A stretch of DNA of 64,000 nucleotides. Source: Glaucostegus cemiculus (lineage: Eukaryota). The position numbers and the translations under genes were made by a program. Location: the NCBI GenBank assembly GCA_976551045.1, contig CDPCPM010000020.1, forward strand, positions 1,984,001-2,048,000. Direction: 5' to 3'. Below the pieces are notes generated by a model. That model did not search any database. It saw only the letters and a program-made list of their open reading frames with translations, and was not told the origin of the DNA. Shown here piece after piece: positions 3,628 to 51,971 of the stretch (within the stretch, counting starts at the first letter, position 1; each line of letters begins with the position of its first letter).

Positions 3628-3846
3628 GTGTACTGGATTGGCCCCATCCTTGGTGCTGTTCTCGGTGGTATTTCTTATGAGTTCTTTTTTGCCTCCAGTG
3701 CCTCCCAAGAGAAGCTCATTGCCTGTATCACCTGCAAAGATATTGAGATTGTGGAAACGGCTAGTGTGTCCCGGTCATCATTGTTGACGGTCACCCAGTC
3801 TGCAATGCGAGTGAAACCGACTGCAAAAGTGCAGGACCACAGTTAA
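3628..3846 (+). CDS. aqp14: Terminal coding exon of a classical aquaporin, most likely aquaporin-14 (upstream exons lie left of the window)
   Basis: Acceptor tcattgttcttgcag|GTG at 3627/3628. Encodes VYWIGPILGAVLGGISYEFFFASSASQEKLIACITCKDIEIVETASVSRSSLLTVTQSAMRVKPTAKVQDHS*, i.e. aquaporin TM6 start (VYWxGP) plus a tail I recognise as Aqp14-type. Lies directly upstream of aqp0 on the same strand. No NPA-containing exon found in 1-3627. Confidence 0.8.
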   Translation: MYWIGPILGAVLGGISYEFFFASSASQEKLIACITCKDIEIVETASVSRSSLLTVTQSAMRVKPTAKVQDHS

Positions 3847-18174: not shown

Positions 18175-20490
18175 AATAACTAGAGAAAAAGTACCAGGCA
18201 AACTAATGGGACTGAAGGCTGACAAATCCCTCGAACCCAATAGCCTACATCCTGGGATCCTAAAAGAGCTGAATGCATTAGTTGTGTTTTTCCAAAATTC
18301 CAAGGATTCTGGAAAAGTCACAGTGATTGGAAAACATCAGATGTAACACTGCTTCTCAAGAAAGGAGGGAGAAAATTTAGAACAACAGAGCAGTTAGCTG
18401 AACAACATTTATCAGGAAAATGTTAGAATCCATTGTTAATCACAAGATCACAAGATCACAAGATAATGGAGCAGAAGCAGGCCAGTCGGCCCATCGAGTC
18501 TGCTCCAAAGGGAAGGGAAGGTGGGGGGGGGGGGGAGAAAAAAAAACCTACTATTCTAAGTCCAAATCCCTGCCTTATCTCCATATCCCCTGATACCTTG
18601 ACCAATTAGATATCTATCTATTTCCTTCTTGAATATCCCCAATGATCTGGCTTCCACTGCTCTCTGTGGTAAGGAGTTCCACAGGTTCACCACCCTCTGG
18701 CTAAAGAAATTCCTCCTTATCTCTGTTGTGAACCTGCTTCCTCTAATTCTAAGGTTGTGTCCTCTAGTCCTGGATTCCCCCACCAAGGGAAACAGCTTGA
18801 CCACATTCACTTGATCCATTCCTTTCAACATCTTGTACGTTTCTATTAGGTCCCCTCTCATTCTTCTGTACTCCAACGAGTACAGTCCAAGTGACGACAG
18901 TCGCTCGTCATATGTAAACTTTTTCATCCCAGGAATCATCCTAGTAAATCTCCTCTGAACCCTCTCCAACATCAGCACATCCTTCCTAAGGTATGGGGCC
19001 CAAAACTGCACACAGTACTCCAAGTGAGGCCTCACCAGTGCCCCATATAGCCTCATCAACACTTCCTTGCTTTTATATACTATACCCCTCGAAATAAATG
19101 CCAACATAGCATTCGCTTTCCTTACTGCCGATCCAACCTGGCGGTTAACCTTTAGGTTATCCTGTACGAGCACCCCTAAGTCCCTTTGTACTTCTGTGTT
19201 TCCAATTTTATCTCCTTCTAGATAATAGTCTGCCCTTCCATTTCTACTTCCGAAGTGTACAACTGCACATTTTTCCACGTTGAACCTCATCTGCCATTTC
19301 TTCGCCCATTCTCCTAGAATATCCAAGTCTCTCTGTAACTTTCCTGTCTCCTGTGTCTCAAGTGGATTGCTAAGAAAAGAGTTTCAGTGGACTAAACTGG
19401 TTTTATGAAAAGGAAATGAGATGTAAGATACTTATTACAGTTCTCTGAGTATGTAACTAGCAGAGTCACCAATGGGAGCCAGTTGGCATAGTGTATTTTG
19501 ATTTCTAAAAGGTATCCAACAAGGAACTACAAAAAAAGGTTACTGTACACGATAAGGGACTACGAATTGAGGATTTGTTTGAGAGAGAGTAAATATAATG
19601 TTTAGGTCAGCAAACTATAACTAGTGGGGTGCCGTGGAGATCAGGAGCTCAGCTATTTACAATCCACATTAATGACTCAGATGAAGGGACCAAATGTAAC
19701 ATATACAACTTTGCTTCCTAAACAGAGATATGTGGGACAGTGAACTGTGGAGAGGGCAAACGAGTCAGCAAAAGGATATAGAGGGGTTAAATACATTGGC
19801 AAAAAGATGGCAGATGGAACTCTGAGATTATCTATTTTTATAGGAAGAGACATAAAAAAATCAGAATATTATTTTGACTGCTGGTGTTCAGAAACATCTG
19901 GATGTTCTCATGCCAGAAATGCATAAAGGTAGCACACAGGTCCCAGAATAATCAAGGCAGCAAATGAAATGTTGGCCACTATTGCAAAGGGAATGAAGTA
20001 CAAGAGATAAACACTCTTGCTGGAACTGTACAAGGCGATGGTGAGACTACACCTGGAGTACTCTAGGCTCCTTATTTGAGGAAGGAGAATCTTATCTCAG
20101 TGGTGGTAGCAAAGATGAAATAGACTGATTCCTGGGGGAGCCTTTGAGAAAAGATTGAGCAAAATGGATTTATAATCTCTGAAGATTAGAAGAATGAGAA
20201 GTGATCTCACTGAAACATAAGATTTTGAGGGGGTACAGCTTTGGGGATTTTTGCCCTGATGAAATGGTCTAAGTTTAGGGGGCATGATTTGAGAGTTAAG
20301 CATTGGCCACTTGAGATGAGGAGAATTGTCTACATCAGAGGACTGTGAATGCTGAGTCACTGAGGCTGAGGGACATAGATTTTTGGAGTACAGGGGAATC
20401 TAGAGTGATGGGGATCCGGGAGGTAAATGGTCTTGAAGCCAAGGATTGAATCCTCCTCAAGGGACTGTACGGTTAACACATAAGGTCATA
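18175..20490 (+). mobile_element. Old, heavily mutated CR1 (RT region), host of a younger insertion
   Basis: ggactgaaggctgacaaatccc, aagaaaggagggaga, cagctatttacaatccacattaatgac, gtgagactacacctggagtac, agaagaatgagaagtgatctc. Confidence 0.75.
18439..19350 (-). mobile_element. Young 5'-truncated CR1 LINE with uninterrupted ORF2 C-terminus
   Basis: 256-aa stop-free ORF (WQMRFNVEKC, RDLGVLV, LYGALVRPHLEYCVQFWAP, RRMRGDLIETYK, RNFFSQRVVNLWNSLP) and (ATCACAAG)x3 tail at 18439-18462. Confidence 0.93.
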
Positions 20491-28301: not shown

Positions 28302-28661
28302 ATGTGGGAGCTGAAATCCATCGCCTTTTGGAGGGCAGTGTTTGCAGAGTTTTTTGCCACCATGCTCTTCGTGTTTTTTGGACTGGGCTTTACTATGCGA
28401 TGGTCTCCGGGCCCCGTGAACGTGCTGCTGGTTTCTCTGGGTTTTGGCTTTGTCCTAGCTGCCCTGGTACAGGCGGTGGGGCATGTCAGTGGAGCGCACC
28501 TCAACCCGGCTGTTACCTTTGCTTACCTGCTAGGGGCGCAACTGAGCATGTTCCGCTGTGTGATGTACATAATAGCTCAGCTCCTGGGGGCAGTGGCAGG
28601 GGCAGCTGTGCTGTATGGGGTCACCCCTCCTGCTGTACGGGGCAACCTAGGGCTTAACACG
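28302..28661 (+). CDS. mip: Aquaporin-0 / lens major intrinsic protein, exon 1 (codons 1-120)
   Basis: [29 protein letters not shown]...[13 protein letters not shown]...VRGNLGLNT with first NPA. 360 nt; donor ACG|gtaaat. Confidence 0.97.
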
Positions 28662-30799
28662 GTAAATATGTTGGCAAATAGCACGCTACGAAAAAAAGTT
28701 AGTGTGAACTTGTACAAACTAAAACCTTGTTTTGAAAACCAATATTAAAGTTTGAAGCAAAATGGGAAATGTCCTGGAAAATCAATGTGTTAAAAAATAT
28801 AGTAACAAAGTTAGTTGGTAAATATGACGAGTGTAAAGGTGTAGAGACCAAAAAAGTAACATTTAAAGGATATCTTTATAACAGGCTTGGGATATAAAAT
28901 ATATTGGAGAATGAATTGAAGCAACATTGATAGCTTTTAATAAGTGTTGGGTTATATTATTCGGAAATTATTAATTTGCGTCCAAATTCTAAGACCGTCT
29001 AAACTCTGGGACTTAAACATTTACCCAAAGTTAAAAGCCAGGGGTGAACTAGGAACTAAATGATATTGCTTTCGCGGGGAGTTAAATGGATTAAAATAAA
29101 CGATGTCGTTCAAAGAATATGAATCATTTCAAATTGAAGATTCCTGTATTATTAAACCCTTCAAAACTGGACCGACAGAAAGCAGATCTGATTCTTTTAG
29201 ATTTTGTACATACAAATACAGATCAATTGGAAGTAACGTGTTATTCTAAAGTACTTATCAGCGGTTTATTCCTAGAACCATTTACTTGTTGCTCCACCAT
29301 AATTTAAGATTAATAAATAATATAGCAGGGAACGAGAGTCTAGAATTTTCCCGCGTAGAATCAGATCGTCAATTCCCTGAGATTTATTGATCGATGGGAA
29401 TGTCAAGTCAGATCGTGTGTACAACGTGAAAATTGAGAGAAAAAACTTAAATGGGGCATAGGGTTAATGGAAAAGTTTTCAATTTTGTTTCGGTAAGGCT
29501 TTACTTCATTTAGTGTTTCGCGCGGTTTTCAGAAAGTAGCCGCATAATTTTTGAAAACTGCTTTTAAAAACTTTCTGAGGCCGTCTCAGAGGGTTCGAGT
29601 TTGTACAGAGCTCTGTACAACACCGACTTAATCTACAGACCAATGTGACAAAGGTAGGAAAACCATGTGTTTATAATGCAAGGTCTGGTGAATTTCGGAG
29701 GGTTTGTTGCTTTAGTTTGATTGGTTCTGAACTGTATTTATCCGGATAACCCAAAGTGACAGATTTCGATTCAAAGATTTACCGTGTTCATTGGATTTCA
29801 AGCGCTAAATCATGTTACAAGGGAGTTAGTTTCTGTTTCAATTCGACTTCAACATTTTTAAAAAATGGGCATGGTTTTACTTGGGTTTTCGATTTTACCG
29901 TGGGCGTCCTAACTTAAGGAATTTTATTTTAAAGTTCTGTGAGCTAAATCTCTCAAGAGATGAACAGAACATTTTCAGAGATTTGAAAACATCTGGAAAT
30001 GTGTCGGCAGCTTTATGCAACTTTCAGTTGGCTCGGGAATTAATGGTTACAGTGAGCTTTCGGTTTTCTGAACATTTTGTTCTGCTTGTAAGTTGCTGGT
30101 GTGAAAATTGGGGAACCACCTTTAAAAGGAGAGAACGCAAAGCTCGCTCGGCTGTGAATTCACGGACGTTCTGCAGACACAGCTCACTGAGTTCAAAAGC
30201 TCCCCGGGTACAGTGTGCGTGTTTGCATTCTCAGCTGCAGTGATCGTACTCTGGCTCTGGGCTGCAGTAAGCCCCATACCTTTCAAATTCAATGACATCA
30301 ACGTGCGAAAGGATGCCCGTAGTCAAAAGGTAAATCACCTTTGTGATTCGGGAGACACGTTGAGGAGTCTGAGACCTCCCTCTAACGTGACGGGTGTTAA
30401 ACCTACAGGTATGTGGGAATTGGATTTTCATAAGGGACGGTGTAAGCACTCCTTCCAATACTAAGTCTGCTAGTGAATCTAGACACGATATTATGCGGGG
30501 ATCAATGTTTTGTTGCCCACTGTTTACACCACAAATTATATGCTTCGGTCACCTTGTCGAGAGCTGGCATCGCGATCGGAATAAGTTGTGAAAAGCTCGG
30601 ATCGTTTCAAATAGAATTACATGTTGTTTTAGGCTTTGTGGTGCTCCAGAGCATGGAACACGCGCCATAGGTGTGCTACCGTTGTCCCAATCAATATTTT
30701 ACGGTTGGAAATGTGTACCTAGCTAGCAGCTATCGCTTTTAGAATTTGCGTTTGATTTACGCCAAAATAAAATCTGCAATATGAACGGTTTCTGACAGG

Positions 30800-32025
30800 G
30801 CTGGTTGATGTCTGTGACTCAGGTCACTGTGTCGGGATTGCGGCCACATTCCAAAGCATACAGGTGGCAAAAAAAAACCCTCACTTGCAACCGAGACCCT
30901 ATCGCTAGCGTGCCTCAGTTTCGCTGTCAATTCTGGCGCGGTAAACCGATCCCCTGCGCTATTTGGAGAGCAGAGTTCTCAGTGTGACCTGGGCCATACT
31001 TCTCACTGAAAACAGAGGGAACAAGCCACCGATCTCGTTCCTCTTTAGGCACTGCCGCAGTGTGCAAAGTATCAGAGCAAGCTAGCTGGTCACTGATGGC
31101 GTTGTTTGTGGGATGTTGCTGTGCGCAAAACACCACGAAAGCAAACTGGTAATCGATGTTGTAGTTTGTGGGACCTTCCCGTGTGCAGTGCATCAAAGCA
31201 AAGTAAGGGCTGGGCACGGTGTTGTTACTTGTGGTGTCCTGTTATGTGCAAAGCTTCGCAAGAAAGGACTAAGTGCCAATTGCTTAAAATATTTAATGGC
31301 TCTGACTGTGCGCAAACGCCAGCAAAGCAGACAAGGCTACCGTTGTTGCTTGCGGGATCTCGCTGAGCGCAGAACATCGCCAAGATGCATTAGGTGGCCA
31401 TTAATTTTTAGCGACATTTTGTTGAGCGCAGAACATCGCCAAAACTGACCAGGTGGCTATTAATTACACGTTAAAATGGGATCTTGCTGTGCGCAAAATA
31501 TCGCTAAAACGGACTGAGTGTTCATTATTTTTTGAGACGTCTTGCTGAGCGCAAAACCACTGCCAATAACAGTCTATGTGGTTATTGAACTTATTGTTGC
31601 GTGCGGTATCTTGCTATGTGTAAATCGCCACCAGAGCAGACTAGACTGTCATTGGTCTAACTTCTGCACAAAACAGAGTACCTCATCTCGAAAAGCAGCG
31701 CTGCCTGTCCTTAAATATACTGTAGGGCTGTAGGATCTCGGCTGCAAGTTACCATCAGAACACTGTCTGGTCACTGAATCATTGCTGACTTTGGGATCTT
31801 TCTGTGTGCGTGAAACTAAAACCAATTAAGAGATAATTGATCTCATTTCTACTTGCAGGAATCCTGCTATGCACAAAATTTTGGCAAAAGACTTTGTACA
31901 TTGACGTTTTTGTTCTTTGTGGAATCTAGCAGAAATGTGATATTACATTTATCGAATGTTGATTGAAGTCTGACTACTGCATTTTGAGAAACAACTGAAA
32001 AGCATGATAACATTACAGATACATT
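30800..32025 (+). mobile_element. Deu-domain SINE with internally amplified core
   Basis: SINE-like 5' part (gcagagttctcagtgtgacctgggccatacttctcactgaaaacaga), then the array, then a weak tail. Confidence 0.6.
31005..31935 (+). repeat. Degenerate ~62-bp tandem array (~15 units) in mip intron 1
   Basis: Recurrent (gt)gggatcttgctg(t/a)gcgcaaaa anchor at ~31064, 31125, 31185, 31248, 31312, 31369, 31428, 31493, 31551, 31620, 31668, 31744, 31808, 31873, 31929. Confidence 0.88.
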
Positions 32026-33933
32026 CGAGTATCACTTGTGAAACAATGCAGTTCACTTGCATCAAACACTATCTGCTAATGATACTCTACAAAGATGTAA
32101 TGAGGAATAGTATAAGTATTTTACCCAAACTTTGCCTATTGAGGCATTGAAACAGTTAAACACATGATTCACATACAAACTCATTACCATTACCTTAGAG
32201 GGCTACCTAAACTTCAGTTAGTGGTGACACACATACATCTAGTTCTTGGAAGACTGGTGGTGGTTAATTCCCTACTAGTCTGTCAAAACCAAAATATAAT
32301 TCAAAACAGCTAGTCAGGACTGCAGTGTATAACCTGTCACTAGCCTTCCTAGGATTAAATATACAGTTCCCACTAGGGACTAGAAGCAAAATTCACTATT
32401 TGCTTGACAGGGCACAGTTGTATATTTTACTGTATTGTTGTACTATACAAAATACTGCATTGAAACCAATGTATAATCCAGCAACAGATCTTTAAGACTT
32501 GGACACTTTTCAAGATATCACAGAAAGTTCATTGAAATCCATTATTTTTTAACCAAGGATCAAACACATGGTTCAGCACAAACTAGGTATAAAAACTGCA
32601 AATTCTCCCCAAAGTACTTCTGATCTGAAAAGTTAAAATGAAGTAATAGTAGCACATTAAAAATACTGTTTAGTTTTAGCCATAAGCTGCAGACAGAAAT
32701 GATACATAAGAAATATGTTTTGCCCTTCTAAGCAGGGCAAATTGTCTGCATCTTTGAATAAGCATATGCATCTTATGTATCAATTCCTCAATTGCTTAGA
32801 GCAAAGCAAATTTCACTTTGCTTCTAACCTTGTGCCATTACCATGCATTCAGATTAATTCAGTAAGGCATGGTAGAATATTTCCTACTCCACCTCTAGTG
32901 TCTCTCATCCTCAAGAAAGGCCCATCTACTAGGAGATCAGAAAGGACAGGTACTTAAATATAGTAAAAGTTCTCAATTTCTTGGACATATTTCATCATTA
33001 ATGTGATTTAATTATGGGATGTTATAAGTTTCCCCTATGCTGAACAAAACCCCAGTTTATCATTAAATGCATTATTCCAATATTGATTTTCAGGGATAGA
33101 TATTGACAATTTGAGGAAGGTCATAATTGAACTCTTTTCCCAGTAGAAGGGAAAAAGCAGTATTTTTAAAATATTTACTTTTGTCCCAAATATAGCTTCC
33201 TTCTCCCTGAAATCATGACTCATTGCAGGCTATTAGCTTTCCTATCTGAAACACATGAACAGTCTCAATCCAATTCCACATGAATATGGTTCCACATCTT
33301 TGAACTACACTTAAGAACTAGTTGCTGTTTTCATTGCAATAGCAATGCAAAGCTATTGTATGGAAAATGAAATAAAAGCACTTGAAGGTTAAGTCATACT
33401 GTTGGGCAAAGTACAGATGACTTTGGTTTTACTCAGATATTTCATGGTTTCAAAACTGGAGCAACTCCATTTTCCATCCAGCAAAGAAATCCCTCAAACT
33501 GATGAACACTAAAACACCATTACACATATTGTTTGTTCCTACTTATTGGCTATTTGATTCACAAAGAAGGGTGGGATTGAGGTGTAATGGAGATTAAGAG
33601 GAAAATAAATGAGTAAATTTAACTAAATTGGGTTATTTCATTAAATTAATTACCAAGTTCCTGAAGTAATGACACAATAATGATCACTCACTAAGCCATT
33701 CATTTCTAAGTTGTGTATCATTTTAAGTCACGTAGCACTCAGTAAATCTGTGGTTTGAGATGGCATTCAAACACTCTCAAGTTCAGATCCAGGAATGACT
33801 GTAGAGTCTAACAGTCATGTGGTTTGTTGATTTTTAGTAGCAGACAAATACACTTGCCTGTAAATACACCCCTCTATATTCACTTTTGGTCTATTGCTGC
33901 CATTTCTAATAGTAATTTTTTTTTATTCTTTAG

Positions 33934-34098
33934 CTTCATGCTGGAGTGGGTATTGGCCAGGGCACAGCTGTGGAGATATTCCTTACTCTTCAGTTTGTCC
34001 TCTGTATTTTTGCCACAACAGACATTCGCAGAAATGGATTCATGGGCTCAGCAGCTATGATCATTGGCTTTTCACTCACTGTGGGTCACTTCTTTGGG
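33934..34098 (+). CDS. mip: mip/aqp0 exon 2 (codons 121-175)
   Basis: ttttattctttag|CTT...GGG|gtaagt. 165 nt encoding [55 protein letters not shown]. Confidence 0.96.
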
Positions 34099-35431
34099 GT
34101 AAGTCTACAAATTTCCACCTCATTTGTCAAAGGACTAGGGTTAAGTGTGGAAAATATACCCAGCTCTGGACTAAAAGGTAACAAGCACTCTCCCAACAGT
34201 TGAGTTGCAAAATACAACTCTCTGTAGTGTTGCCCCATCCAGGCTAGGAGGATCTCCAGTGTTTCAGTTTACCTTGGCTACAATACAACCAAGGTGCTAG
34301 AACTGGCTGTGGCCTCTCAGAGGAGCAAGGGTTTTAAATTAGATGTTGATCTTATACTGCTGATCATCATTTAACAATTCCTGTTGGAAAGTACAAACAC
34401 ATAAACATGAAGCAAAGACAGACACCACCACTACCTGATCACTGTACATGTATCAGCCTCTTTAAGGCACCAGCTTTAATTGATTATATATACCCTATCA
34501 ATCCATACATCATTGCCTCCTTGGAAAATTTACCCAAAATTAGAATGATAATTAACCTGAGTTCAGGTCATTGCAAAAGGTACAACTGAATCTTCATTCA
34601 GTTCAACTGGCATTAATGGGGTCCTTGCCACCTAGTCATGCAACCAGCTTCATTCCTGTTTAATGTAGACGGTTGTGGACCAACAACTGGGAAGTGAGAT
34701 TAACCCAACAGTCTGCCTTTGGCCTGCATGAACCACCTCCTATGTTGTAAATTTGTAAGTTCTTATGTTTCTGTGAGCTTCACACCAGGTCCAGAGCAAT
34801 CACCCTTCTGGGCAAAGGGCTACTTTATTATGGAGATCAGAGATCCTCAGATATAAATCGGATTCAGATTTCCATTTTGGGTGTTGACTGCTTGGCACTA
34901 TTGGAGGGCAAGATTTGGCCAGTTCCATGGGTGTTAGAAGAGAAGAGGTTCTGCAAAGGTAAGGCTTGAATTATTTTTGAAGGTTACTGGTGCCCACAAC
35001 AATAACCTGGACCACTGATGTCCCATCTTGCCCTGCCCACCCCTCTTTGATTGCTCCCCGTATCTAGCTCATCCTGCTGCCAGGTCCAGGAGTTTTTTTG
35101 TTGTCTCAATGAGTTGTTGGGTTGGCTAGTTTGGTATTTTGCAGCTCTCCTGAAGAATATAATTGAAGCCAAAGACTCAGAAACACAGCCAGAAAAGTCA
35201 ATTGTGATCCTGTGTGAAGAATTAGGTTTAATTAGCAAATGGCTTTATGTTCTTTCATATTTTCTTGGATAGTACTGACTATTCACAGAAGTTTTAAACT
35301 CATGGCTCTGAATACTCAAATGATGATGAGTGGTAATCAGTACCATTTCTTTTGAATTGTCTGTTAAAACTTTTTATTCATGCAATTATGTCTAATTGGA
35401 ATAATACGGTACTCTCTTCCATTTTCTCCAG

Positions 35432-35512
35432 CTTCATTACACAGGATGTGGAATGAATCCAGCAAGGTCCTTTGCACCAGCTGTACTGACTAGAAATTTT
35501 GGAAACCACTGG
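35432..35512 (+). CDS. mip: mip/aqp0 exon 3 (codons 176-202)
   Basis: ttttctccag|CTT...TGG|gtaagc. 81 nt encoding [27 protein letters not shown] with the second NPA. Not in the ORF track. Confidence 0.96.
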
Positions 35513-36635
35513 GTAAGCACAAACTGAATTCAACTAAAACCGAGTGAGCAAGTGAACAAATCTGTTTTACAAAAGCACAAAAACATCAAAGATGCTTGTA
35601 AGATACACCAACATTTCTTCAATCACCACACATAAACAATCAAGTTAAGAACTATGGGGGTTTTGTGCCTCAGGGATTTTGTATAATTAGTTACTGATTG
35701 ATGACAGATTCTTCAAATACAGCTAAACAAGTTCAGGTATAATGGGGACAATGTATTTAATTATTTCAGGTGGCTTTGTCCCAGTATGTCTGATCATATA
35801 TTCTGCTTACTTGTGAAGCACTTACAAAAGGTCAAAGGTTGCCCATAATTTTTGAAGAGGATCTGTCAGATCAGAAAATTCAAAACATCTGCTGAGCTTG
35901 TACATGCTAATTAATGGCAAGCTTTGCCCATTTTTAATAAAGCATATGCTTTTTAGCATGCCCTTGATTCTGAGTAATCTGAAAAACTAGTTTAGCACGT
36001 CAAGTGGCCTCTTCCTGGTCTACAGGCTTTCAAAAATAGACATACCTGAATTAAAAAGCAAAATCTTCTATAATTCAGCAGAAATTGACTATGTTAGCAA
36101 CCTCATTTAGAAAGGGAATAAGGAAGTATGTGATGGGAACTGGAAATCTCTCACTGAACACTAAAGGGTGCTTTTAAGTAGTTATTTGCTCTCTAACTTT
36201 AAAAAAAAAAGTTCCATAGCAGCAGCAGCAAGGTGGATCCTACTGCAGAAATTGTAACAGGCGAACATTCAACAATGCTGCAAGTATATATCAGGAATCT
36301 GAAAATCTTGCTCTGGGTGAGGGAAGGTATGAGGTATTGTCCTGGTTTCCACAGCCACCTCTGTTCAACTTTCTATCAAACTGATGTGGTTATATAGCAT
36401 TGCTGCATTTTGCCAAACTTTGTAAGATATTTTTAAGCTACTGGGCACTGTGTTGCTTCTGAACATCAAGCCCTGTGAGTCAAAGTGAATTAGCTCATCA
36501 CAGCCAGGTGTCAAATATCCTCAGACTTGGGATGAAAAAAAAAGCCAGCATTTCTGCTCCTATTCACTGTTGGTGACCCTTGTAGGAAAGTGTACATGGG
36601 CAGATACAAAAAGTCCTGTACTTTTGATCTCTGGG

Positions 36636-36775
36636 TGTAAAGCACTTTACAGTCAAAGTACTTTTAAAGTGTAATTACAGTTTAAAAGTACTTTGACTGT
36701 AAAGTGCTTTACAGTCAATACTGGCTCAATTTCTGATCTTATAAATAATTACAGTTATAAAATCAGAAATTGAGC
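36636..36775. repeat. Two adjacent inverted repeats (39-bp arms with no loop; 21-bp arms with 10-nt loop)
   Basis: 36636-36674 vs 36675-36713 (1 mismatch); 36724-36744 vs 36755-36775 (1 mismatch). Confidence 0.95.
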
Positions 36776-37090
36776 AAGCAATTTATACACAGCTAGCTCC
36801 CACAAATAGCAAAATGATAATGACCCAGGTATTGGTTAATAGTGATGTTGAAATTGGCCTGAACAGCTGGGATAATTCCCCTGCCCTTTTTCTTTTTGTA
36901 AAATGATATGGATTTGAAAGAGCAGATGTGGCCTCATCTGTTCCTTCAGATGAGGTGACGTCTCACCTAGTAGAGCACCCCCACAAGTACTGCACTGGAG
37001 CATCATCTAAAATTTTCATGCTCACATCTCCTGAGTGGAGCTTAAACCCACTATCGTCCAGAGGCAAGGTTGCTACCAACTGAGACACTT
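36640..37090 (-). mobile_element. Deu-domain SINE (SacSINE1-like)
   Basis: aaagcactttacag...gctcccacaaatagcaa...gtactgcactggag...gagtggagcttaaacccac...gctaccaactgag, the reverse of 675-1055. Confidence 0.75.
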
Positions 37091-37354
37091 CTAACAGTAA
37101 GTGGAAATGTGTATTTTGGATAACATTAAGATCTGGCTCATCTGTAATGTTTCCCCGATGAAATAGCTAAATTGCTCAGATTCATGCATTAAGATAGTTA
37201 CCTGGGTAAGGTTCAGGTAGGATGTTAGGAACAATGGAGCCATTGGTGCACTGGCTCAGCCACAAGCCTTAGTAAAGAAAAATGAGGGAATGCTCAATTC
37301 TAATTAGTTAACACTATTTTGTTTCTCAATTATGTTACTTCTATATCTTTGCAG

Positions 37355-37540
37355 GTATACTGGGTAGGCCCCCTGATAGGAGGTGCTATTGCAGCTCTGC
37401 TGTACGATTTCATCCTGTTCCCCAGGATGAGAGGTCTCTCAGAGAGATTGGCTATTCTTAAAGGAGCTCATCCCCCAGAAGCTGATGGACAACAGGAACC
37501 CCGGAGTGATCCCATTGAACTCAAAACACAAGCCTTATAA
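37355..37540 (+). CDS. mip: mip/aqp0 exon 4 (codons 203-263 + stop)
   Basis: tatctttgcag|GTA. Encodes [10 protein letters not shown]...[16 protein letters not shown]...[10 protein letters not shown]. 360+165+81+186=792 nt gives 263 aa, the length and C-terminal TQAL of AQP0. Confidence 0.96.
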
Positions 37541-40500
37541 AAGTAGCTTTCTTTTTAAAGAAAGGGGTTTACAACACAAGAACTATCCTATCATCACGAA
37601 GTGACATTGTGAAATTTACTGTGTTGTTACTGAAGGTGTGCTTGAAAGAATATGAATGCTGTTAATGTCCCTAAGCAGGGAATTATAGTACAGAGGGTAT
37701 ATCTAAATTACTGTACAGACAAAGTTATCAAAAACAAGCAAATGGAGATAAATTACTCAGATATTTTCAACATTCTTCAAATTCAGGGTTTGAATGTAAT
37801 AATTCATTCTAATTGGACAAAAAAATCCTCACGAGCTTACTTGATTATTAATCATATTTTACAGTTACATTAAATTTATAACCTGCTGTTTTTAAAATGC
37901 TCGCTAATTGCAAATGCTTTAAGATAATATAATGGGCTGTTTTGATGGGACAAAAATGTTTTTAAGTTCTTTAAGTTCATGAAAAATGTAAGCAAGTTTA
38001 AATTTTACAGCAGTGAAAGTCTGATCAAGCTGGTTAAATCTACCTTTTCTGAAGTAGGATGGATTTTTGTTGATCTTATAACTTCCTTTTTTAAAAACTG
38101 CTCCCCATAACATCACCCAGCCCACCCCCTCACTCCACAACTCCCCAAAATAAAATGGAAGTTTACTTTGGGGAAAAAAAAAATCGCTAAATAAGCAAGT
38201 GCCAACAAGTGGAACTTTGCTGGTAACTTAGTTTTTTGAAAAATTTCTTTTGTAGCCAATAGATCTTATCAGACAGCTAGTGTTTGGTCACTTGGTCCAA
38301 TTTTAAAAAGTTCCCCTCCCACTCCAAGTAGTTTATAGTATTTACATAATCTCTGAGACATTTTTCACATGAACCCAACCCTGTATTATAACAGAACCTT
38401 CAAAATATTTATACATAGATTAGATTGTCTTTCAAGACAATTTAACTCTCAAGACAATTATACAAAGGAGCAAATTGTCCTTGGTCACAAAATCAATCTT
38501 CTGCTTGATGAAAAGTTATACATACAACCACTGACCATTATAGTCCTTTCATTTTGCAAAATAAATGCCAGGAAATTCAGTATTTAATTTAAAAATAGTT
38601 TGGATTGACTCTCTATTTTTTGCCGTGCCCACTCACAAGCTGATATTGGGTACATGCCCTGCATTTTCATGTTGCATCAGCATAGACTTTGGAGTTGCGA
38701 GAATTGAAATTTCAATATGCAGTGTTAAAGACTATAGAACAATTTATTTTGTGGTAGAGGTGCCAGTGTCTTTTTCCACAAAACATGTTGCAGAACTTGC
38801 CTCAAAATGGAAAAATAGTGTCTAATCAATCTGTGTGGAAAATGCAACACTGGTCCTTAATTTTCACATAATCTCTAACACTCTCACAATTCTCAGTAAG
38901 TCCACACCATTCATTTAATCAGTGAGAAACAGAGGCAGAAGGAAATATAATTTTGAAGATTTATGGGTTGGGATGAAAATTTGTATTATGGGGATTTGAA
39001 AGGGTTAAATCAAATCTTTAATGGTTGTAGGATACCTATTCAAAATCTATAAATCTGAAATTCACAAGTTCTAAATGTTCACCAGAATATATTTGGTAAT
39101 ATTCCCATTGAAGACATCATAATGTAAACTACAGTTCAGGAAATCTGCCAACAGTTCTTTACTGTTTATTTGTAGGGTTGTCCAAGTCTTCTACTCTGCT
39201 TGGTATACCAGGAAAGAGATGTAGACTTACTATATTAATAGAGGGGCAGTGGTTACAACCATTCCTCAAGGTTTTCTACTTTGCTGCGTAAAGCACTCAA
39301 GTTGACGAACAATTGTGGGGGAAAGAAAGCAGAGTTCTGTTCCTCATTTTTTTTCTGTTGACCCTTATTTTGTAAACTCCAAGCTAAGACTCAACATGTT
39401 TAGAAAATCCAATGCTGTATTGTTACAAATGGTGGAGCACAGGGCTCCCAAACCTGAATTACAACTCCAAATCCACACAAACATCCAAATACAACATTGG
39501 GTAAATCCTGTCACTTCTTGTTGAAGCTGCTAGATAAGATTATTACATAGTTCAAATATTAGCATCTTGAAAGATGAAGGGATATATGAATACTTCTACC
39601 TCACAAAGTTAGTCACCAGGGCAGCACAGGTGGCATCCGCAAAAAGAGCGCAGACCTTGTCAATCACTTGGCTGCAGTAAAAAGCAGCATGATGAGGCAG
39701 AAGGGAGAGGAAAAGGTACAAAAAAATTAAAATAGCTATGACTTAATAACAATGAATGAACTGAAAGAATAATGTCTATTTTGCACTCTGCATTGTGTTA
39801 AACCTAATATTATAAATTCAATTGATTTGTCAACTTATTCCCCATTGTGAATTCCTTCGGCTGCAGTGAATGGTAACTGGAAAACAAAGTTACTAGGGGA
39901 ATATTCCAATAACATTTAGTCAATTAGCATTTCTGTAAATGTGTTTCCCTGTAACAAACCTCTGGATTTGCACACATGGATTTTTTTTTTTTACAAGCTG
40001 TGTGAGATTTATGCTTTGTGGTGAGGTTTTTGGAAGTTGATTTTAGGAGGAAGAATACTACCCTTATTTGTTTTGGAATGGAGATTTTCTTCCCCTTCCC
40101 AGTCACATGAAATAAAATGTTAATTTAACATTGCCACGATTACTAGGATCAGTTCTTGTATTCAAGGGCAAACAGTTTGGACTTTTCTTGCCCCGCTGAG
40201 AGCAACTCCTTGCGTGTAATCACTTTGGTCTTTTCGACCAAATTTTTTTTGAATTGGGAGTGATGCTACAGTTGTTAAAATAGTGCATCTTTGTGGTATT
40301 GTTAAGGCATTATATTTTGAATAAATAAATTTTGAAAAGTGGCATAGCATTATTTCAGTGAAAGTTTAATTTGGTTGTGATTGCTTTGATGAATTCATAG
40401 TACATCAAATGGAAGTAGACTTAAAATGGCAAGTAAAACTCTGATCATCCTTAAAATATTCAAGATGTTAGTAAGGATGCAGGATGCCTTCTTACCTCAA

Positions 40501-46923: not shown

Positions 46924-48126
46924 TCAGTGAGGAATTGCTGTTATTCTCATACTCTGTGATGCAATTGGATAAGTAACCATTGGTGTGGTGGCATGGCTTA
47001 TGGTGATTCCTGGCAGCGCTTGTGCAATTGATACTGTCACTGGTGCAACAGAGACAGCCACTGGGGCCATGGAAACTGGAGGTGCCATTCCCTGGGCAAT
47101 GGTCTGGGCAAGTGCCGCAGGGAGAGAAGCAATTTCAGGATTAAGATGCTGTGCTGTTGGTGCAGCATTGGTAGGTGGTGCAGCAGAAGCTGCAGCAGTT
47201 GCCACTAGATCTTGCTGGGTGACAGGTCGCGGTTGAAGTGCTTGGCTACTCAAAGTGGTGTGAGTCTGTGCTACACCATGGTTGTAATTGGTCAGTGTAG
47301 CCACAGTTGGTGCTGCCAGTATTTGCTCTGTCGCTGTGGGAGTGGAGGTCAGCGTCACCACCTTAGTTTGGTTGCGAAAATGTGCGTTTTGCTCCAAAAG
47401 CACCTCATTAGTTGCCATCAAATTTGAGATCTGTTTTTTGAGTTCTTCAACACGCTTTCGAAGCATCAGATTCTCCTCTTCTAAAAATCTATAGTCCACT
47501 GGACGCGAGTTTGAGATACTAAAATCATAACTTTCAAATCGCAAGCCATCCACTCTTCTCCTCTTTAGTATATGGTCATAGTCAGTATAACGATCAGTGT
47601 CATAGAGGTCATCAAATGGGTCATATCGCCGCACTACAGGAGAAAGCACTTGGTCTCGTGCCAATCTCTCTAAAGTTCTGTTTTCATACTCATATTCATC
47701 ACGTTTTAAGTGCCGAAATTTACATTTAGATCCTCTTTGACAGTCCCCTTTCAGGTAATCTCGGCAGATTGGAACCTCACCTTTTTTAAAAGAAAGGTCA
47801 GAAGGTGAAAGGCCAAGACCCATGGCCACTGTAAGGCGCAGACGTGGGGGAAGCTCTCCTGATTTTTTGTAATGTTCCTCATCTTCCTTTGTCCCGTGAA
47901 TAAACTTGCAGTTGATACGAGTGCACTCCTTGTTCTGATAATCATGGCAAAAGACAAACTCATTTTTTTTAACACCCAAGTCGGACACCTCATTAATGTC
48001 GGGGTGGTAGAACTTGCAGCGCTTGCCACGTTTGCAGACATTGCGCAGGAAGTCACGGCAAATATCATCTGAGCTGTGGCCAGCCTCGTCATTACCACTG
48101 TTAAATAAATTATCTTTATCCGGCAT
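46924..48126 (-). CDS. zc3h10: Zinc finger CCCH domain-containing protein 10, single coding exon (400 aa)
   Basis: ATG at 48126 (the ORF track's 48132 start is GTG). MPDKD..., three CCCH fingers (CRDFLRNVCKRGKRCKFYH, CHDYQNKECTRINCKFIH, CRDYLKGDCQRGSKCKFRH), KRRR basic patch, coiled coil LEEENLMLRKRVEELKKQ, end ASQSMRITAIPH. Acceptor gattttctttttcag| ahead of 48171. Confidence 0.95.
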   Translation of the reverse strand: MPDKDNLFNSGNDEAGHSSDDICRDFLRNVCKRGKRCKFYHPDINEVSDLGVKKNEFVFCHDYQNKECTRINCKFIHGTKEDEEHYKKSGELPPRLRLTVAMGLGLSPSDLSFKKGEVPICRDYLKGDCQRGSKCKFRHLKRDEYEYENRTLERLARDQVLSPVVRRYDPFDDLYDTDRYTDYDHILKRRRVDGLRFESYDFSISNSRPVDYRFLEEENLMLRKRVEELKKQISNLMATNEVLLEQNAHFRNQTKVVTLTSTPTATEQILAAPTVATLTNYNHGVAQTHTTLSSQALQPRPVTQQDLVATAAASAAPPTNAAPTAQHLNPEIASLPAALAQTIAQGMAPPVSMAPVAVSVAPVTVSIAQALPGITISHATTPMVTYPIASQSMRITAIPH

Positions 48127-51058
48127 CTTCACAGACTATTATTGTTTCTCAGCAACTGTACATTAAAACATCTGAAAAAGAAAATCAAGGTATGTCTTTA
48201 CAGAGAAGGAGGAATTAACCCACAAAGTAAGTGTTACTTGAACCACTGCATTTTGAGCTCAGCAAGCTGAACAACGTTTGCGTGGGAAAAATAAAGATTT
48301 CTAAAGGTGTGCGTCTGGTGTCAGCATCAAATATTATAAGGTTAGTTGTAATACACTTCCCTTTGAACAGGCCCCATTGTATCAGTGACATAACTTCATT
48401 CCCCAATAACTTATCCCTGAAGGCTAACACTGGAAATGATGGGTGCTATTTTATTTAGTAAATTTTAGATTTATTTTGTGCAGTTACTTATGCCCATTAA
48501 GATTTTGTTTAAAATTTGCCAAACTTATTTTGTTTTGAACATCACAACCAAAAGAGAAAAAGAGTGCTCCCTTCATTACTGTGGGATAAACAACTGCACT
48601 TACATGAATGCCAACATTTCCAAGATTTTTGGAAAAGTAGTTTTTAGAATAAAGATTTTCACTGGGAATTCTTTATCTCCACTGAATGTGTATGCATGCT
48701 TTCAAATGATTCAGCCAGTAATCACCATGTCTGTGCCCCCTCACACCTCCTGAGATACTGGCTTGATATAGTTTTAGGAGAAAATGTTTGCATCTTCAGC
48801 CAACAAATATTTCCTGGTATGTTGGTGGCAAGTCCAAAGATGGTGCAAAATTGATATAATGAATTACAATGAGGTCAGCTTGTACTGATTTAATGGCAGT
48901 TGCCCTTAGGCCAAAGGAAAGGGGGAAAAATAAACATAACCAGAGATCCCACTTCTGATTTGAACACAGTGACTTCTGCTGGAAAGTGTATATCTGCAGA
49001 CTAGGGCTTCCCAAAGTATTTTCCAATACTTTATTTCCATTTTAATACTTGAAATTTCACATGACCCCAGAAATCAACCAAAACAAAACAGTAATCAAGC
49101 TGTTTGCACAAGTTGCAATGTGATGATAACCAAATAATTTATTAAAGCAATGCAGTTTAATGGATAACTATTAACTACAATTACGAGGAATTACAGTTCC
49201 TGGTAATGGACAACACAACTTGGATGAGGACCTTGGCACCCAACCAATGGCTGGGTGGAAGCACTGTAGGGACAGGTCTCTTTCTCTCTCACTTTTTTCT
49301 AGGGGCTCTACACCAGTAGTCTCCAAGGGAGAAAGACATGGAGTACACCACCATTACCTACAGTTGTCACATGTCAGCAGAGTAAATCATTAGTCCTTCA
49401 CTCCCATGCCTCAAGATTAATATATCTTAACAAGACAGCAGGAGCTGCAAGGCATAATCTGACTGCTTTCTAACATTGGCCAAGACCAGTATCTGTGACA
49501 ATGTGATGGGCTTAACATGGTCCATGGATCATGACTCCAACAACTCATGCTACAAACAATTTGGGGTCATGACACAGAATTTGGAAAGCACTATGTAGAG
49601 TTTGGTCATACGTAGGCTGTGGTCAGATGTGGTGCCACCCACTGTAAAAGGACCTACCAATAATTACTCATCTTGGCTCACGTACAAGGAAACCCATCGC
49701 CTGGGAAGATGAGACAATCGGAACTTTACCCCAGGAAGAGTCTGCACTTTTAGAAGAGAGAGACAAAATTGAGCATGGGATCCAATATTTGCAATAATGA
49801 TCAAGAAGTATTAACCTAAGGAAAAAAAGTTACAGCATCATGGAAGTAGAAATGCAATGAAAGACCAAAAGATGAAAATGGTGAGTAACAGAAACATACT
49901 GATGAAAATAATAATGGAAATAAAAATGATTACCTTTAGGCATTATTTTGAATTTTTGGTGTATCAGTTGTTAAAATAGTGGGTACATCTGATAGTAGAT
50001 AAGAAAGTGACTTGAAGTCCCAGTTGCTCAGTCAAACAACTGAACAAATGCATACAGCTGAAAAGTCAAGGTAATTAAAACATTCTGGGTGCTAAATATA
50101 TAAGCTTCCTTCCTCCATTTAATTATAGACACCCAGGAAGCTCTAATTAATATGATTGAATTGGGGCAAGTAGCAAAAATTGCTGACTTACTCAATGGAT
50201 TTCAAACTGGTATGATGAATAAAATGTGGCATCAATAGCCCTCTACATATCTGCAGACACAATGCATCAATTTGAACTATCATGATGCCAAAGTATCTGT
50301 AATGTAAACTGTACTGTGGAGGGTTAATTTTTGTAAATGAAATATTTTGAAAAGGCTAATAGTAGGTGTGGGGATCCTGAAGGTAGCTTTACTTTGCGGA
50401 CATTGAGTACCACACAATTTTTGCTTACTACCTGAACCACATGTAAATTGGCATGGGGTCAGTAAGATCAGAATTCAGAGAAAAAGGACCTTAGATCTGA
50501 AATTCAAATAGTAGAACCAGTTTGGACAGACCCAAGAAACACAAGGGGCAGAAAATATTGATAAGAGTTGTCTATAGCCCTCAAACAGGTGTAGCTCTTA
50601 CTTATTCTGCTAGTTACAAATAGCTAACAGATTTGTCAAATGTGATTTCCCTTTCATACATGCACCTTGACTCTGCTCAATTATATTATCATCATGTGTG
50701 CATTGTTACCACATCCTTCGTAATAGATTCTATTATTTTTCCTACCACTGATGTCAGGCTAACTGGTCTGTAATTTCCCATATTCTCACTCATTCCTTTT
50801 TTAAATAGTGGGGTTATACTAGCTACCTTCTACCTTGCAATGGATTGTTTTCAGGTTGGGACACTGCGAGTAATGGTGTACCACAGGGACTGGCGCTGGG
50901 GCCCCAAGTGTTCAGCTTCTATATCAATAATTTTGAAGAAGGGACCAAGAGTAATATACCCAAATTTGCTAATTATACAAAGTTGAATGGCAGTGGCAGT
51001 TGTCAGGAGAATGCAGAGAGAGACTTCAGGTGATACAGGAATCTCAGTGAATGGGTAT

Positions 51059-51971
51059 TGTTATAGATTAGGTTACTATTGANNNNNNNNNNNNNNNNNN
51101 NNNNNNNNNNNNNNNNNNNNNNNNNNNNNNNNNNNNNNNNNNNNNNNNNNNNNNNNNNNNNNNNNNNNNNNNNNNNNNNNNNNNNNNNNNNNNNNNNNNN
51201 NNNNNNNNNNNNNNNNNNNNNNNNNNNNNNNNNNNNNNNNAGATAAAAAGAATGTGATGACATTATTGGAAAGAGAGAGAGAGAGAGAGAGACACAAAGG
51301 AAGAGAGAGCGACAGCAGCCTGTTTGTTTCTGTCGATGGATGAAAAACAGTAACTGTGTTTGTCAATCAATCCACGGATGGATTTCTGGAGTCATCCAGT
51401 GGAGTCCACTTTGTCATTAACCTGAAGAAGGAAACAGGTAGTTGTGTGGATGGCCACATTTCAGATGCTTTTCAGAGTGGCAGATGCTTTGGAACAAAGT
51501 GGTGGAATTCACTTTGCTGTTAACCTGTAGAAGGAAACAGGTATTTGAGTGGACTGTCATGATTCGGGAATTTTTGGGGTGAGGGAGTCGCTACCCAGCA
51601 AACACTGAAATGCCATTTGAGTTCCCAAGTGGAAACATTTGGATTTCATGATTCCTCTCTAAGTTCTCTCTATATCCATGTTTTGTCTTCGGTTGACGGT
51701 GCTTATGAAGAAGCCTTTACTCATGTTTCATCTTACGGCTTACTGAACTGAACTTTGAGAACCATTCCTGGACTTGGAGTTTAGGAATTTGCCACACACA
51801 CATGACAAGTTTAGTTTTTGGGGTTAATGTTTAAGATTCTAACATTTTTATTTCTAACATTCTAACTTTTTTTATATTTATTTTTCTTATTATCGTAAGT
51901 AGTTATTAATAAAGTAGTTTTTAACACTGAATTATGACTTGGTGTGTTTCTTTTGTCGCTGGTTTGTAACA
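51059..51971 (+). mobile_element. Solo LTR (contains assembly gap)
   Basis: TGTTA...TAACA termini, 4-bp flanks GTAT/GTGT, (GA)n tract, ~100-bp internal duplication (taacctg.agaaggaaacaggta x2), AATAAA ~60 bp before the end. Confidence 0.75.
51083..51240. other. Assembly gap (158 N)
   Basis: Run of n. Confidence 1.

Follow-up and report, generated by a model that had tools for sequence, protein, structure and literature searches.

The aquaporin gene analyzed here from the ray Glaucostegus cemiculus is, in our confident view, the single, intact aqp0 of this genome, located behind aqp14, and its product is likely a fish-type AQP0. By analogy with other aquaporins, this ray Aqp0 is likely a fast, mercury-blockable water pore that also acts as cell glue, and is unlikely to replace AQP2 of the kidney. 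The gene, its location, its pore cysteine (C181) and kidney expression in dogfish were all already in print.

Structure and position of the aqp0 gene

The window is the whole stretch of 64,000 nucleotides analyzed (contig CDPCPM010000020.1, positions 1,984,001 to 2,048,000), and its features are listed in Table 1. The four aqp0 exons joined to an open 263-aa protein, which starts with MWELKSIAF and ends with IELKTQAL, and all introns were of the GT..AG type and in phase 0. A single 1747-base contig of RNA run X1 spanned all three exon joints. Run X23 of a related organism gave 1, 1 and 2 reads for these joints, and no aqp0 joint was found in runs X21 and X24. The RNA runs came from a relative and carried no tissue labels, so they confirm splicing only. 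The initial annotation had described a spliced 263-aa protein with F23, T149, H177, C181 and A235 and an AQP0-type tail; all five residues were present, the splicing was seen in the RNA of the relative, and the tail is of the ELKTQAL type. Three aqp14 exons are located at contig positions 1979713-1982633, just before the window, on the same strand as aqp0. The last aqp14 exon is within the window, and 24.5 kb separate it from the start of aqp0 downstream. The aqp14-aqp0 cassette is not new, and aqp14 upstream of aqp0 is the published vertebrate rule (PMC6906440). An Rfam search of the window gave no match.

Table 1. Features of the aqp14-aqp0 region, in window positions
Feature	Position	Strand	Remarks
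aqp14 last exon	3628..3846	+	earlier exons precede the window
aqp0 exon 1	28302..28661	+	aa 1-120; TM1-3, first NPA; Pfam MIP 5e-38; RNA joint; F23, R33, N40, F48, P109/P110/R113
F23 codon	28368-70	+	
aqp0 exon 2	33934..34098	+	aa 121-175; TM4, loop D, TM5; RNA joint; T149, I151, F156, H172
T149 codon	34018-20	+	
F156 codon	34039..34041	+	loop D (calmodulin-gating loop); Arg in most bony AQP0
aqp0 exon 3	35432..35512	+	aa 176-202; second NPA; RNA joint; H177, C181, G182, R187
H177 codon	35435..35437	+	lineage-restricted Tyr-to-His change
C181 codon (TGT)	35447..35449	+	ar/R position 3 = human AQP2 C181 / AQP1 C189
aqp0 exon 4, coding part	37355..37540	+	aa 203-263 and stop; TM6; RNA joint; C-terminal helix G229/S231/A235; AQP0-type tail
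A235 codon	37451-53	+	
aqp0 3' UTR	37541..38097	+	extends at least to 38097; run X1 contig aligns 37354-38097

Identity of the product as AQP0

The position of the protein was examined in a 72-protein tree from which the six tested columns had been removed. The AQP0 clade had a support of 99.7/100 and the elasmobranch AQP0 clade within this tree 100/100, and the ray protein fell outside the AQP2-like clade. In the free tree, elasmobranch AQP0 was placed next to that of tetrapods, but this grouping was weakly supported (33/85), and the deep AQP0 relationships are accordingly poorly resolved. A genome search found five classical aquaporin loci (aqp0, 1, 4, 14 and 15); no AQP2/5/6 was found among the 22/22 candidates scored, although such searches give lower bounds. 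The AQP1 and AQP15 genes are paralogues on other contigs, and elasmobranch AQP1 and AQP15 have about 51% and 44% identity to ray Aqp0.

The protein has NPA boxes at 68-70 and 184-186 and an ar/R filter of F48/H172/C181/R187, which fits the water-selective pattern F-H-(A/C)-R. Its closest known counterparts are other elasmobranch Aqp0 proteins, such as that of the spiny dogfish (PMC12898837) and Pristis pectinata XP_051865517.1, which shares 260/263 residues with it; their genes likewise have four exons and lie behind aqp14. The model of the 99%-identical Pristis protein P0128 (pLDDT 85.6) showed a six-helix fold with two half helices, with AQP0 structures at ranks 1-4 of its structure matches, and the P0128 sequence scored 437 bits to mammalian AQP0 in comparison with 317 to human AQP2. 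Mammalian AQP0 (PDB 2b6o, 1ymg) aligned with ray Aqp0 at about 72% identity, at the same length and without gaps; a ten-residue loop is identical, and both have R33 and H122, but the mammalian protein differs in Y23, Y149, H40, A181, R156, S229 and S235. Aqp0 of teleosts, bichir, sturgeon and lungfish has F23, T149, A235, G229 and an ELKTQ(A/S)L tail like that of the ray, but differs in having A181, R156 and E151 in place of C181, F156 and I151. The tree clade, the tail and the synteny therefore agree with the assignment to AQP0 made initially, and the mammalian AQP0 and human AQP2 motifs given there matched the PDB sequences.

Distribution and history of C181

The elasmobranch tallies cover 15 listed proteins of 19 cluster members. 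All 15 have F23, T149, F156, C181 and A235 in common, and C181 is therefore not specific to one species. The bony-vertebrate tallies cover 89 intact AQP0s, 54/143 candidate ids having been dropped earlier as partial or mis-spliced models; Ala181 was present in 83/89 of these and Cys in one, anchovy P0083, on its own. Cys was also found at the same filter position in AQP1 and AQP15 of this genome and in 28/28 tetrapod AQP2/5, and Thr in three basal AQP2-like genes (two of coelacanth and one of lungfish). Over the ten residues that read TGCSMNPARS in AQP2, shark AQP1 reads exactly as ray Aqp0 and is the closer match. The cysteine was tabulated in 2014, with the filter F-H-C-R for chondrichthyan AQP0 and F-H-A-R for all bony groups (Finn 2014 Table 1).

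Ancestral states were judged by counts of changes. Inheritance of C181 from the channel ancestral to both AQP0 and AQP2/5/6, with a later switch to Ala in bony-fish AQP0, is a tentative reading. It is in keeping with the Cys of tetrapod AQP2/5 and of the sister group AQP1 + AQP15. On the species-constrained tree, which was not rejected (AU p=0.154), a hand count gave it 5 changes among gnathostome-type channels, a tie with the alternative; the overall minimum at site 181 was 6 changes with lamprey Ser. Gene conversion from aqp1 into aqp0 exon 3 was also considered, and the absence of any signal (51/81 bases, against 48-56 in other pairs) speaks for inheritance. However, retention cost 6 changes against 5 on the free tree and 10 codon steps against 9, and the loss would sit on a branch 0.023 long, where the elasmobranch stem measures 0.21. 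The Thr of the basal AQP2-like genes can become Ala by one base change but needs two to become Cys, and the anchovy Cys indicates that regain happens (1/89). The counts tie on the species-constrained tree, and codon steps and branch lengths lean to an independent gain. Because coelacanth and lungfish AQP2-like genes carry Thr and an anchovy AQP0 carries Cys, 'ancestral' is at most a tentative description of C181. Of the earlier claim that C181 preceded the AQP0/AQP2 split, the refuting case of a species-specific change did not apply, and the count of changes ended in a tie.

An origin of the AQP2 clade from sarcopterygian AQP0 was disfavored (AU p=0.016), weakly, because a fast search and one model were used. 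Lamprey Aqp01 was not found, the lamprey proteins examined grouping with AQP4, and exon 3 of a holocephalan Aqp0 was not found, the Callorhinchus model P0280 consisting of exon 1 only. Callorhinchus P0280 carries L23.

Kidney expression

Expression of Aqp0 outside the lens, including kidney, had been suggested and is published for dogfish (PMC12898837, PMC5568229), in which the eye also shows strong expression (PMC12898837). It is unlikely that elasmobranch Aqp0 is a functional AQP2 substitute, that is, the main apical channel in regulated renal water reabsorption. Such a role would fit the absence of AQP2/5/6 among the candidates scored in this genome, the moderately strong Aqp0 mRNA of dogfish kidney, where antibody also labelled some tubules of the sinus zone apically (PMC12898837), and the presence of Aqp0 in a dogfish kidney assembly (PMC5568229). 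However, the RRxS256 PKA trafficking motif, a feature of the AQP2 tail, is absent from ray Aqp0, in which Pro occupies the corresponding position, followed by just 8 further residues, and the V2a receptor is missing in cartilaginous fish (PMC12496175). Salinity had no significant effect on dogfish Aqp0 (p=0.06, 0.08), and the staining was patchy (PMC12898837). In the red stingray, a nearer relative, Aqp0 was not among the renal aquaporins above 5 TPM and was absent from the 8-row RNA-seq table, and the late distal tubule was marked by Aqp1, 3-1, 3-2 and 15. Since the trafficking motif is absent, any kidney role of ray Aqp0 would be constitutive and species-dependent.

The AQP2-like residues

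The initial annotation had grouped H177/C181, F23, T149 and A235 into an AQP2-like pore signature, which fell apart on comparison. Tetrapod AQP2 (and AQP5/6) does share F23, T149, C181, often A235 and a similar N-terminus with ray Aqp0, but AQP2/5/6 form a separate clade with 55-60% identity to it. F23, T149 and A235 are general fish-AQP0 states, present together in 55/89 intact bony-vertebrate AQP0s. H177 is recent: it was shared only by Pristis P0128 among the 15 listed other elasmobranchs, the other 14 having Tyr, one base change away, and was found in 4/89 bony AQP0 and only 6/28 tetrapod AQP2/5. In the P0128 model residue 177 is located just beyond the end of helix 160-175, outside the filter, whose His is H172. 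Position 182 holds Gly, the residue that AQP0 and AQP1 also have there, whereas Ser182 was found in 28/28 tetrapod AQP2/5 and 6/6 basal entries; the protein therefore lacks the AQP2/5/6 loop E motif G-(C/T)-S-M-NPA.

Overall likeness to AQP2 was not raised either: identity to tetrapod AQP2 was 0.59, below that of lungfish AQP0 (0.62) and therian AQP0 (0.61), and 0/30 relative-rate comparisons were significant (lowest p 0.08). Eleven AQP0 sites are fixed in elasmobranchs and nearly absent from bony AQP0, and only C181 and S45 of these are common in AQP2-type channels. F156 was present in 15/15 listed elasmobranch and 0/89 bony AQP0s, 83/89 of the latter having Arg. Human AQP2 is resembled at the N-terminus and in the motif that precedes the second NPA, but the idea that the gene is of AQP2 lineage, an AQP0/AQP2 chimera or a mis-splice can be dismissed on the tree, tail and synteny, on these identities, rates and sites, and on the joints read in RNA.

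Predicted pore, gating and adhesion

As a fish-type AQP0, the product would be a water-selective tetrameric pore that passes water faster than mammalian AQP0 and glues lens fibre cells. F23 and T149 would take away two tyrosine barriers and raise permeability several-fold above that of mammalian AQP0, as in teleosts; PMC11317983 explains fast fish AQP0 by F23 and predicts high water permeability from F23/T149, in line with the high permeability first proposed. Like the corresponding cysteines of AQP1 and AQP2, C181 should provide a mercury site. Mercury block of ray Aqp0 is plausible by this analogy and would be weakly diagnostic; most zebrafish aquaporins are mercury-blocked without this Cys (PMC2829555). 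The acid-pH switch should be abolished by N40, with no His at 39/40, whereas many teleost Aqp0s have His39/40; Asn40 in Chondrichthyes has been noted previously. The junction residues R33, P109, P110 and R113 were kept and residue 123 is Ala (4/5 kept); P123 is among the four junction residues named in PMC8392583. The four that were kept should retain junction-forming adhesion, and P110 favours adhesion according to the literature.

A literature search, from which subscription journals were mostly missing, found no transport or functional assay of shark or ray Aqp0, and no A181C AQP0 mutant, A210C AQP4 mutant or oocyte study of shark Aqp0 that names Cys181; the statements on permeability, mercury block, pH response and adhesion are therefore all extrapolated. 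Apart from C181 and S45, nine substitutions are elasmobranch-specific and could alter Aqp0 behaviour, and loop-D F156 is a candidate lead on calmodulin gating. All parts taken together, namely a shark and ray Aqp0 that is always open, fast and mercury-sensitive, that has lost both its acid-pH switch (N40) and its gating by calmodulin (F156, I151, G229, A235), with mammal-type adhesion loops, serving some sharks as a constitutive apical kidney channel in place of AQP2 and carrying C181 as an ancestral relic, make an improbable combination.

Residue 156 has been implicated in the calmodulin gating of mammalian AQP0, and F156 is a naturally occurring variant there. The function of cartilaginous-fish Aqp0 could show whether the lens channel originally passed water fast and ungated, and at what point the tyrosine barriers and calmodulin gating arose.

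Structure of the aqp0 locus

Translation of the four coding exons gave an open frame of 263 residues carrying F23, T149, H177, C181 and A235 exactly where the initial annotation had placed them, and the aqp14 gene it named as neighbour was found on the same strand, 24.5 kb upstream. This aqp14-aqp0 cassette has already been described (PMC4245216, PMC6906440). In data from a related organism, all three aqp0 splice joints were crossed by one 1747-base contig from sequencing run X1 and by a few reads of RNA run X23; no aqp0 splice joint was seen in runs X21 and X24.

Features of the aqp0 region (window positions; G000:C20, source contig)
Feature	Position	Strand	Remark
aqp14 last exon	3628-3846	+	other three exons just before the window
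Open frame	18556-19383	-	275 codons
TATAAA	28177-28182		
aqp0 coding exons 1-4	28302-28661, 33934-34098, 35432-35512, 37355-37540	+	GT..AG introns
X1 contig match	31030-31203		aqp0 intron 1
Degenerate array	31099-31643		aqp0 intron 1
Loop D, I151 to F156	34024-34041		aqp0
Palindrome	36636-36713		aqp0 intron 3
Hairpin	36721-36778		aqp0 intron 3
Repeat	36786-36825		aqp0 intron 3
CCCH zinc-finger gene 1	46924-48135	-	single exon
Run of N	51083-51240		158 bases; masked or gap
CCCH zinc-finger gene 2	L033:1690-3336 = G000:C20:2049690-2051336	+	single exon, 548 aa

The TATAAA, a possible core promoter, precedes the aqp0 start codon by about 120 bases. The intron 1 array, which lies in a GC-richer patch and is built of units of about 60 bases, yielded seven copies with 64-76% identity to the reference, and the X1 match falls at this array region. 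In intron 3, a near-perfect palindrome of 78 bases (97%) is directly followed by a hairpin with 24-base arms, the two probably being a small mobile-element remnant or a local fold-back duplication; reads from several runs piled up on the repeat. The two CCCH genes, 52% identical, stand back to back with about 17.5 kb between them. The first we take to resemble ZC3H10, and the second, whose first finger unit is present in four tandem copies of about 53 aa each, is a lineage duplicate with finger expansion. The 275-codon open frame, presumably similar to a CR1/L2-type LINE reverse transcriptase in its C-terminal part, gave no match in a Pfam search, and similar fragments were present in the flanks.

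The product is AQP0 and not AQP2

The aqp0 product differed from Pristis pectinata AQP0 at 3 of 263 positions and from stingray and skate AQP0 at 7, which makes a batoid the most likely source. In a tree of 72 proteins, with the six tested columns left out, it fell inside the elasmobranch clade (100/100) within AQP0 (99.7/100), separate from the AQP2-like clade. The near-identical Pristis protein P0128 scored 437 bits on mammalian AQP0 versus 317 on human AQP2, and the first matches of its structure model were AQP0 structures. The genome held five classical aquaporin loci (aqp0, 1, 4, 14 and 15), the set published for cartilaginous fish (PMC13109646, PMC4245216), and no AQP2/5/6 locus was found among the scored candidates. 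The gene is an ordinary orthologue, and its lineage-specific residue has been published.

Taken over its full length, the protein is not primitive. Its identity to tetrapod AQP2 (0.59) was lower than that of therian AQP0 (0.61) and lungfish (0.62), and of the eight compared it was one of those lying farthest from the AQP0 root (0.255); the relative-rate tests, 30 in all, gave no significant result. Eleven sites were invariant in elasmobranchs with a residue that bony AQP0 almost never had, and at nine of these the residue was rare or absent in AQP2-type channels.

C181 is the only marker among the five residues

The five residues had been read as an AQP2-like pore signature. They were tallied in 15 listed elasmobranch proteins from a 19-member cluster, in 89 intact bony-vertebrate AQP0 kept from 143 candidate ids, and in AQP2-type channels (28 tetrapod AQP2/5 plus 6 entries that represent 3 basal AQP2-like genes). 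The signature did not survive this comparison. F23, T149 and A235 were each present in 15/15 listed elasmobranchs and in 61, 56 and 64 of the 89 bony AQP0, occurring jointly in 55, bichir, sturgeon and lungfish among them; on these counts they are the general fish AQP0 state, and Y23, Y149 and S235 arose in sarcopterygians or tetrapods. H177 does not belong to the filter, whose His is H172, and sits beyond helix 5. Its codon is one base from Tyr, the residue of 14/15 listed elasmobranchs, and His was found in 4/89 bony AQP0 and 6/28 AQP2/5.

C181, by the same tallies the sole real marker, was present in 15/15 listed elasmobranchs and also in Squalus suckleyi AQP0 (a row of a published supplement), and of the 89 bony AQP0, 83 had Ala, 5 had Thr and 1, from an anchovy, had Cys. 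Finn et al. (2014, Table 1, PMC4245216) gave the filter as F-H-C-R in chondrichthyan AQP0 versus F-H-A-R in every bony group; for lungfish and coelacanth AQP2-like channels they listed Thr or Thr/Ala at this site. C181 is not AQP2-specific, because AQP1 and AQP15 of the same genome also carry Cys there. The local motif of shark AQP1 fits the aqp0 product better than that of AQP2 does, tetrapod AQP2/5 having Ser at 182 in 28/28.

The Cys181 of the anchovy protein P0083 (Coilia grayii) is apparently an independent gain. The Callorhinchus milii model P0280, exon 1 only, had Leu23, Lys33 and Thr110, in which it departs from each of the 15 elasmobranch proteins.

History of C181

Over all rows, site 181 needed at least six changes. 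By hand count on the constrained tree, lamprey Ser excluded, five changes each were needed for retention of C181 from the AQP0/AQP2 ancestor with loss in bony AQP0, and for ancestral Ala followed by independent gains of Cys in AQP1/15, elasmobranch AQP0 and tetrapod AQP2. Retention, which we consider possible but somewhat doubtful, agrees with the Cys of the sister group AQP1/15 and of all tetrapod AQP2/5, and no conversion from aqp1 was detected in exon 3. However, it cost 10 codon steps versus 9 for gain (Ala-Cys 2, Ala-Thr 1, Thr-Cys 2) and 6 changes versus 5 on the free tree, and it places the loss on a branch 0.023 long, versus 0.21 for the gain. The free tree put elasmobranchs next to tetrapod AQP0 with weak support; the species-constrained tree was not rejected (AU p=0.154), and one in which AQP2 descends from sarcopterygian AQP0 was rejected (AU p=0.016, fast search).

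Renal role

Action outside the lens, for example in kidney, had also been proposed. Expression in dogfish kidney and other extra-ocular tissues agrees with this, being the topic of PMC12898837 and, for kidney, reported in PMC5568229; in the former, PCR and patchy apical staining, accompanied by a salinity trend that was not significant, favor some renal role. The available text of this 2026 paper makes no mention of mercury or AQP2. An AQP2-like role is opposed by the absence from the aqp0 product of the RRxS256 trafficking motif (PMC2151666), by the lack of a V2a receptor in cartilaginous fish (PMC12496175) and by the red stingray, whose renal aquaporins exceeding 5 TPM, in the accessible part of the same paper, did not include Aqp0, which was missing from its 8-row table too.

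Predicted channel function

The aqp0 product has the six helices and two NPA boxes of an aquaporin, and its filter is F48/H172/C181/R187. Mercury is a laboratory probe, and we know of no physiological role for C181. No functional study of chondrichthyan Aqp0 was found in a literature search covering few subscription journals. Mercury acts on AQP2 at C181 and on AQP1 at the equivalent C189 (PMC11353066), so mercury block would be likely by analogy; since mercury also blocks most zebrafish aquaporins in the absence of this Cys (PMC2829555), mercury sensitivity alone would be no distinction from teleost Aqp0. With Y23 and Y149 absent, water passage should be several-fold faster than in mammalian AQP0, and fish AQP0s are reported to be faster (PMC11317983). 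N40 predicts absence of the acid-pH switch, as already remarked for Chondrichthyes (PMC4423293). Of the adhesion residues, R33, P109, P110 and R113 are present and P123 is missing, which would make lens-type adhesion likely by analogy (PMC8392583).

Loop D has I151 and F156 versus E151/R156 of bony AQP0. F156 was found in 15/15 listed elasmobranchs and 0/89 bony AQP0, of which 83 had Arg. This change, fixed across elasmobranchs, was unmentioned in the initial annotation. S231 is kept, and S229 and S235 are absent. In mammalian AQP0, published work links R156 and the loop D stretch 150-156 to gating by calmodulin. Loss of this gating in the aqp0 product is a prediction only, and I151/F156 may affect calmodulin gating of elasmobranch Aqp0.
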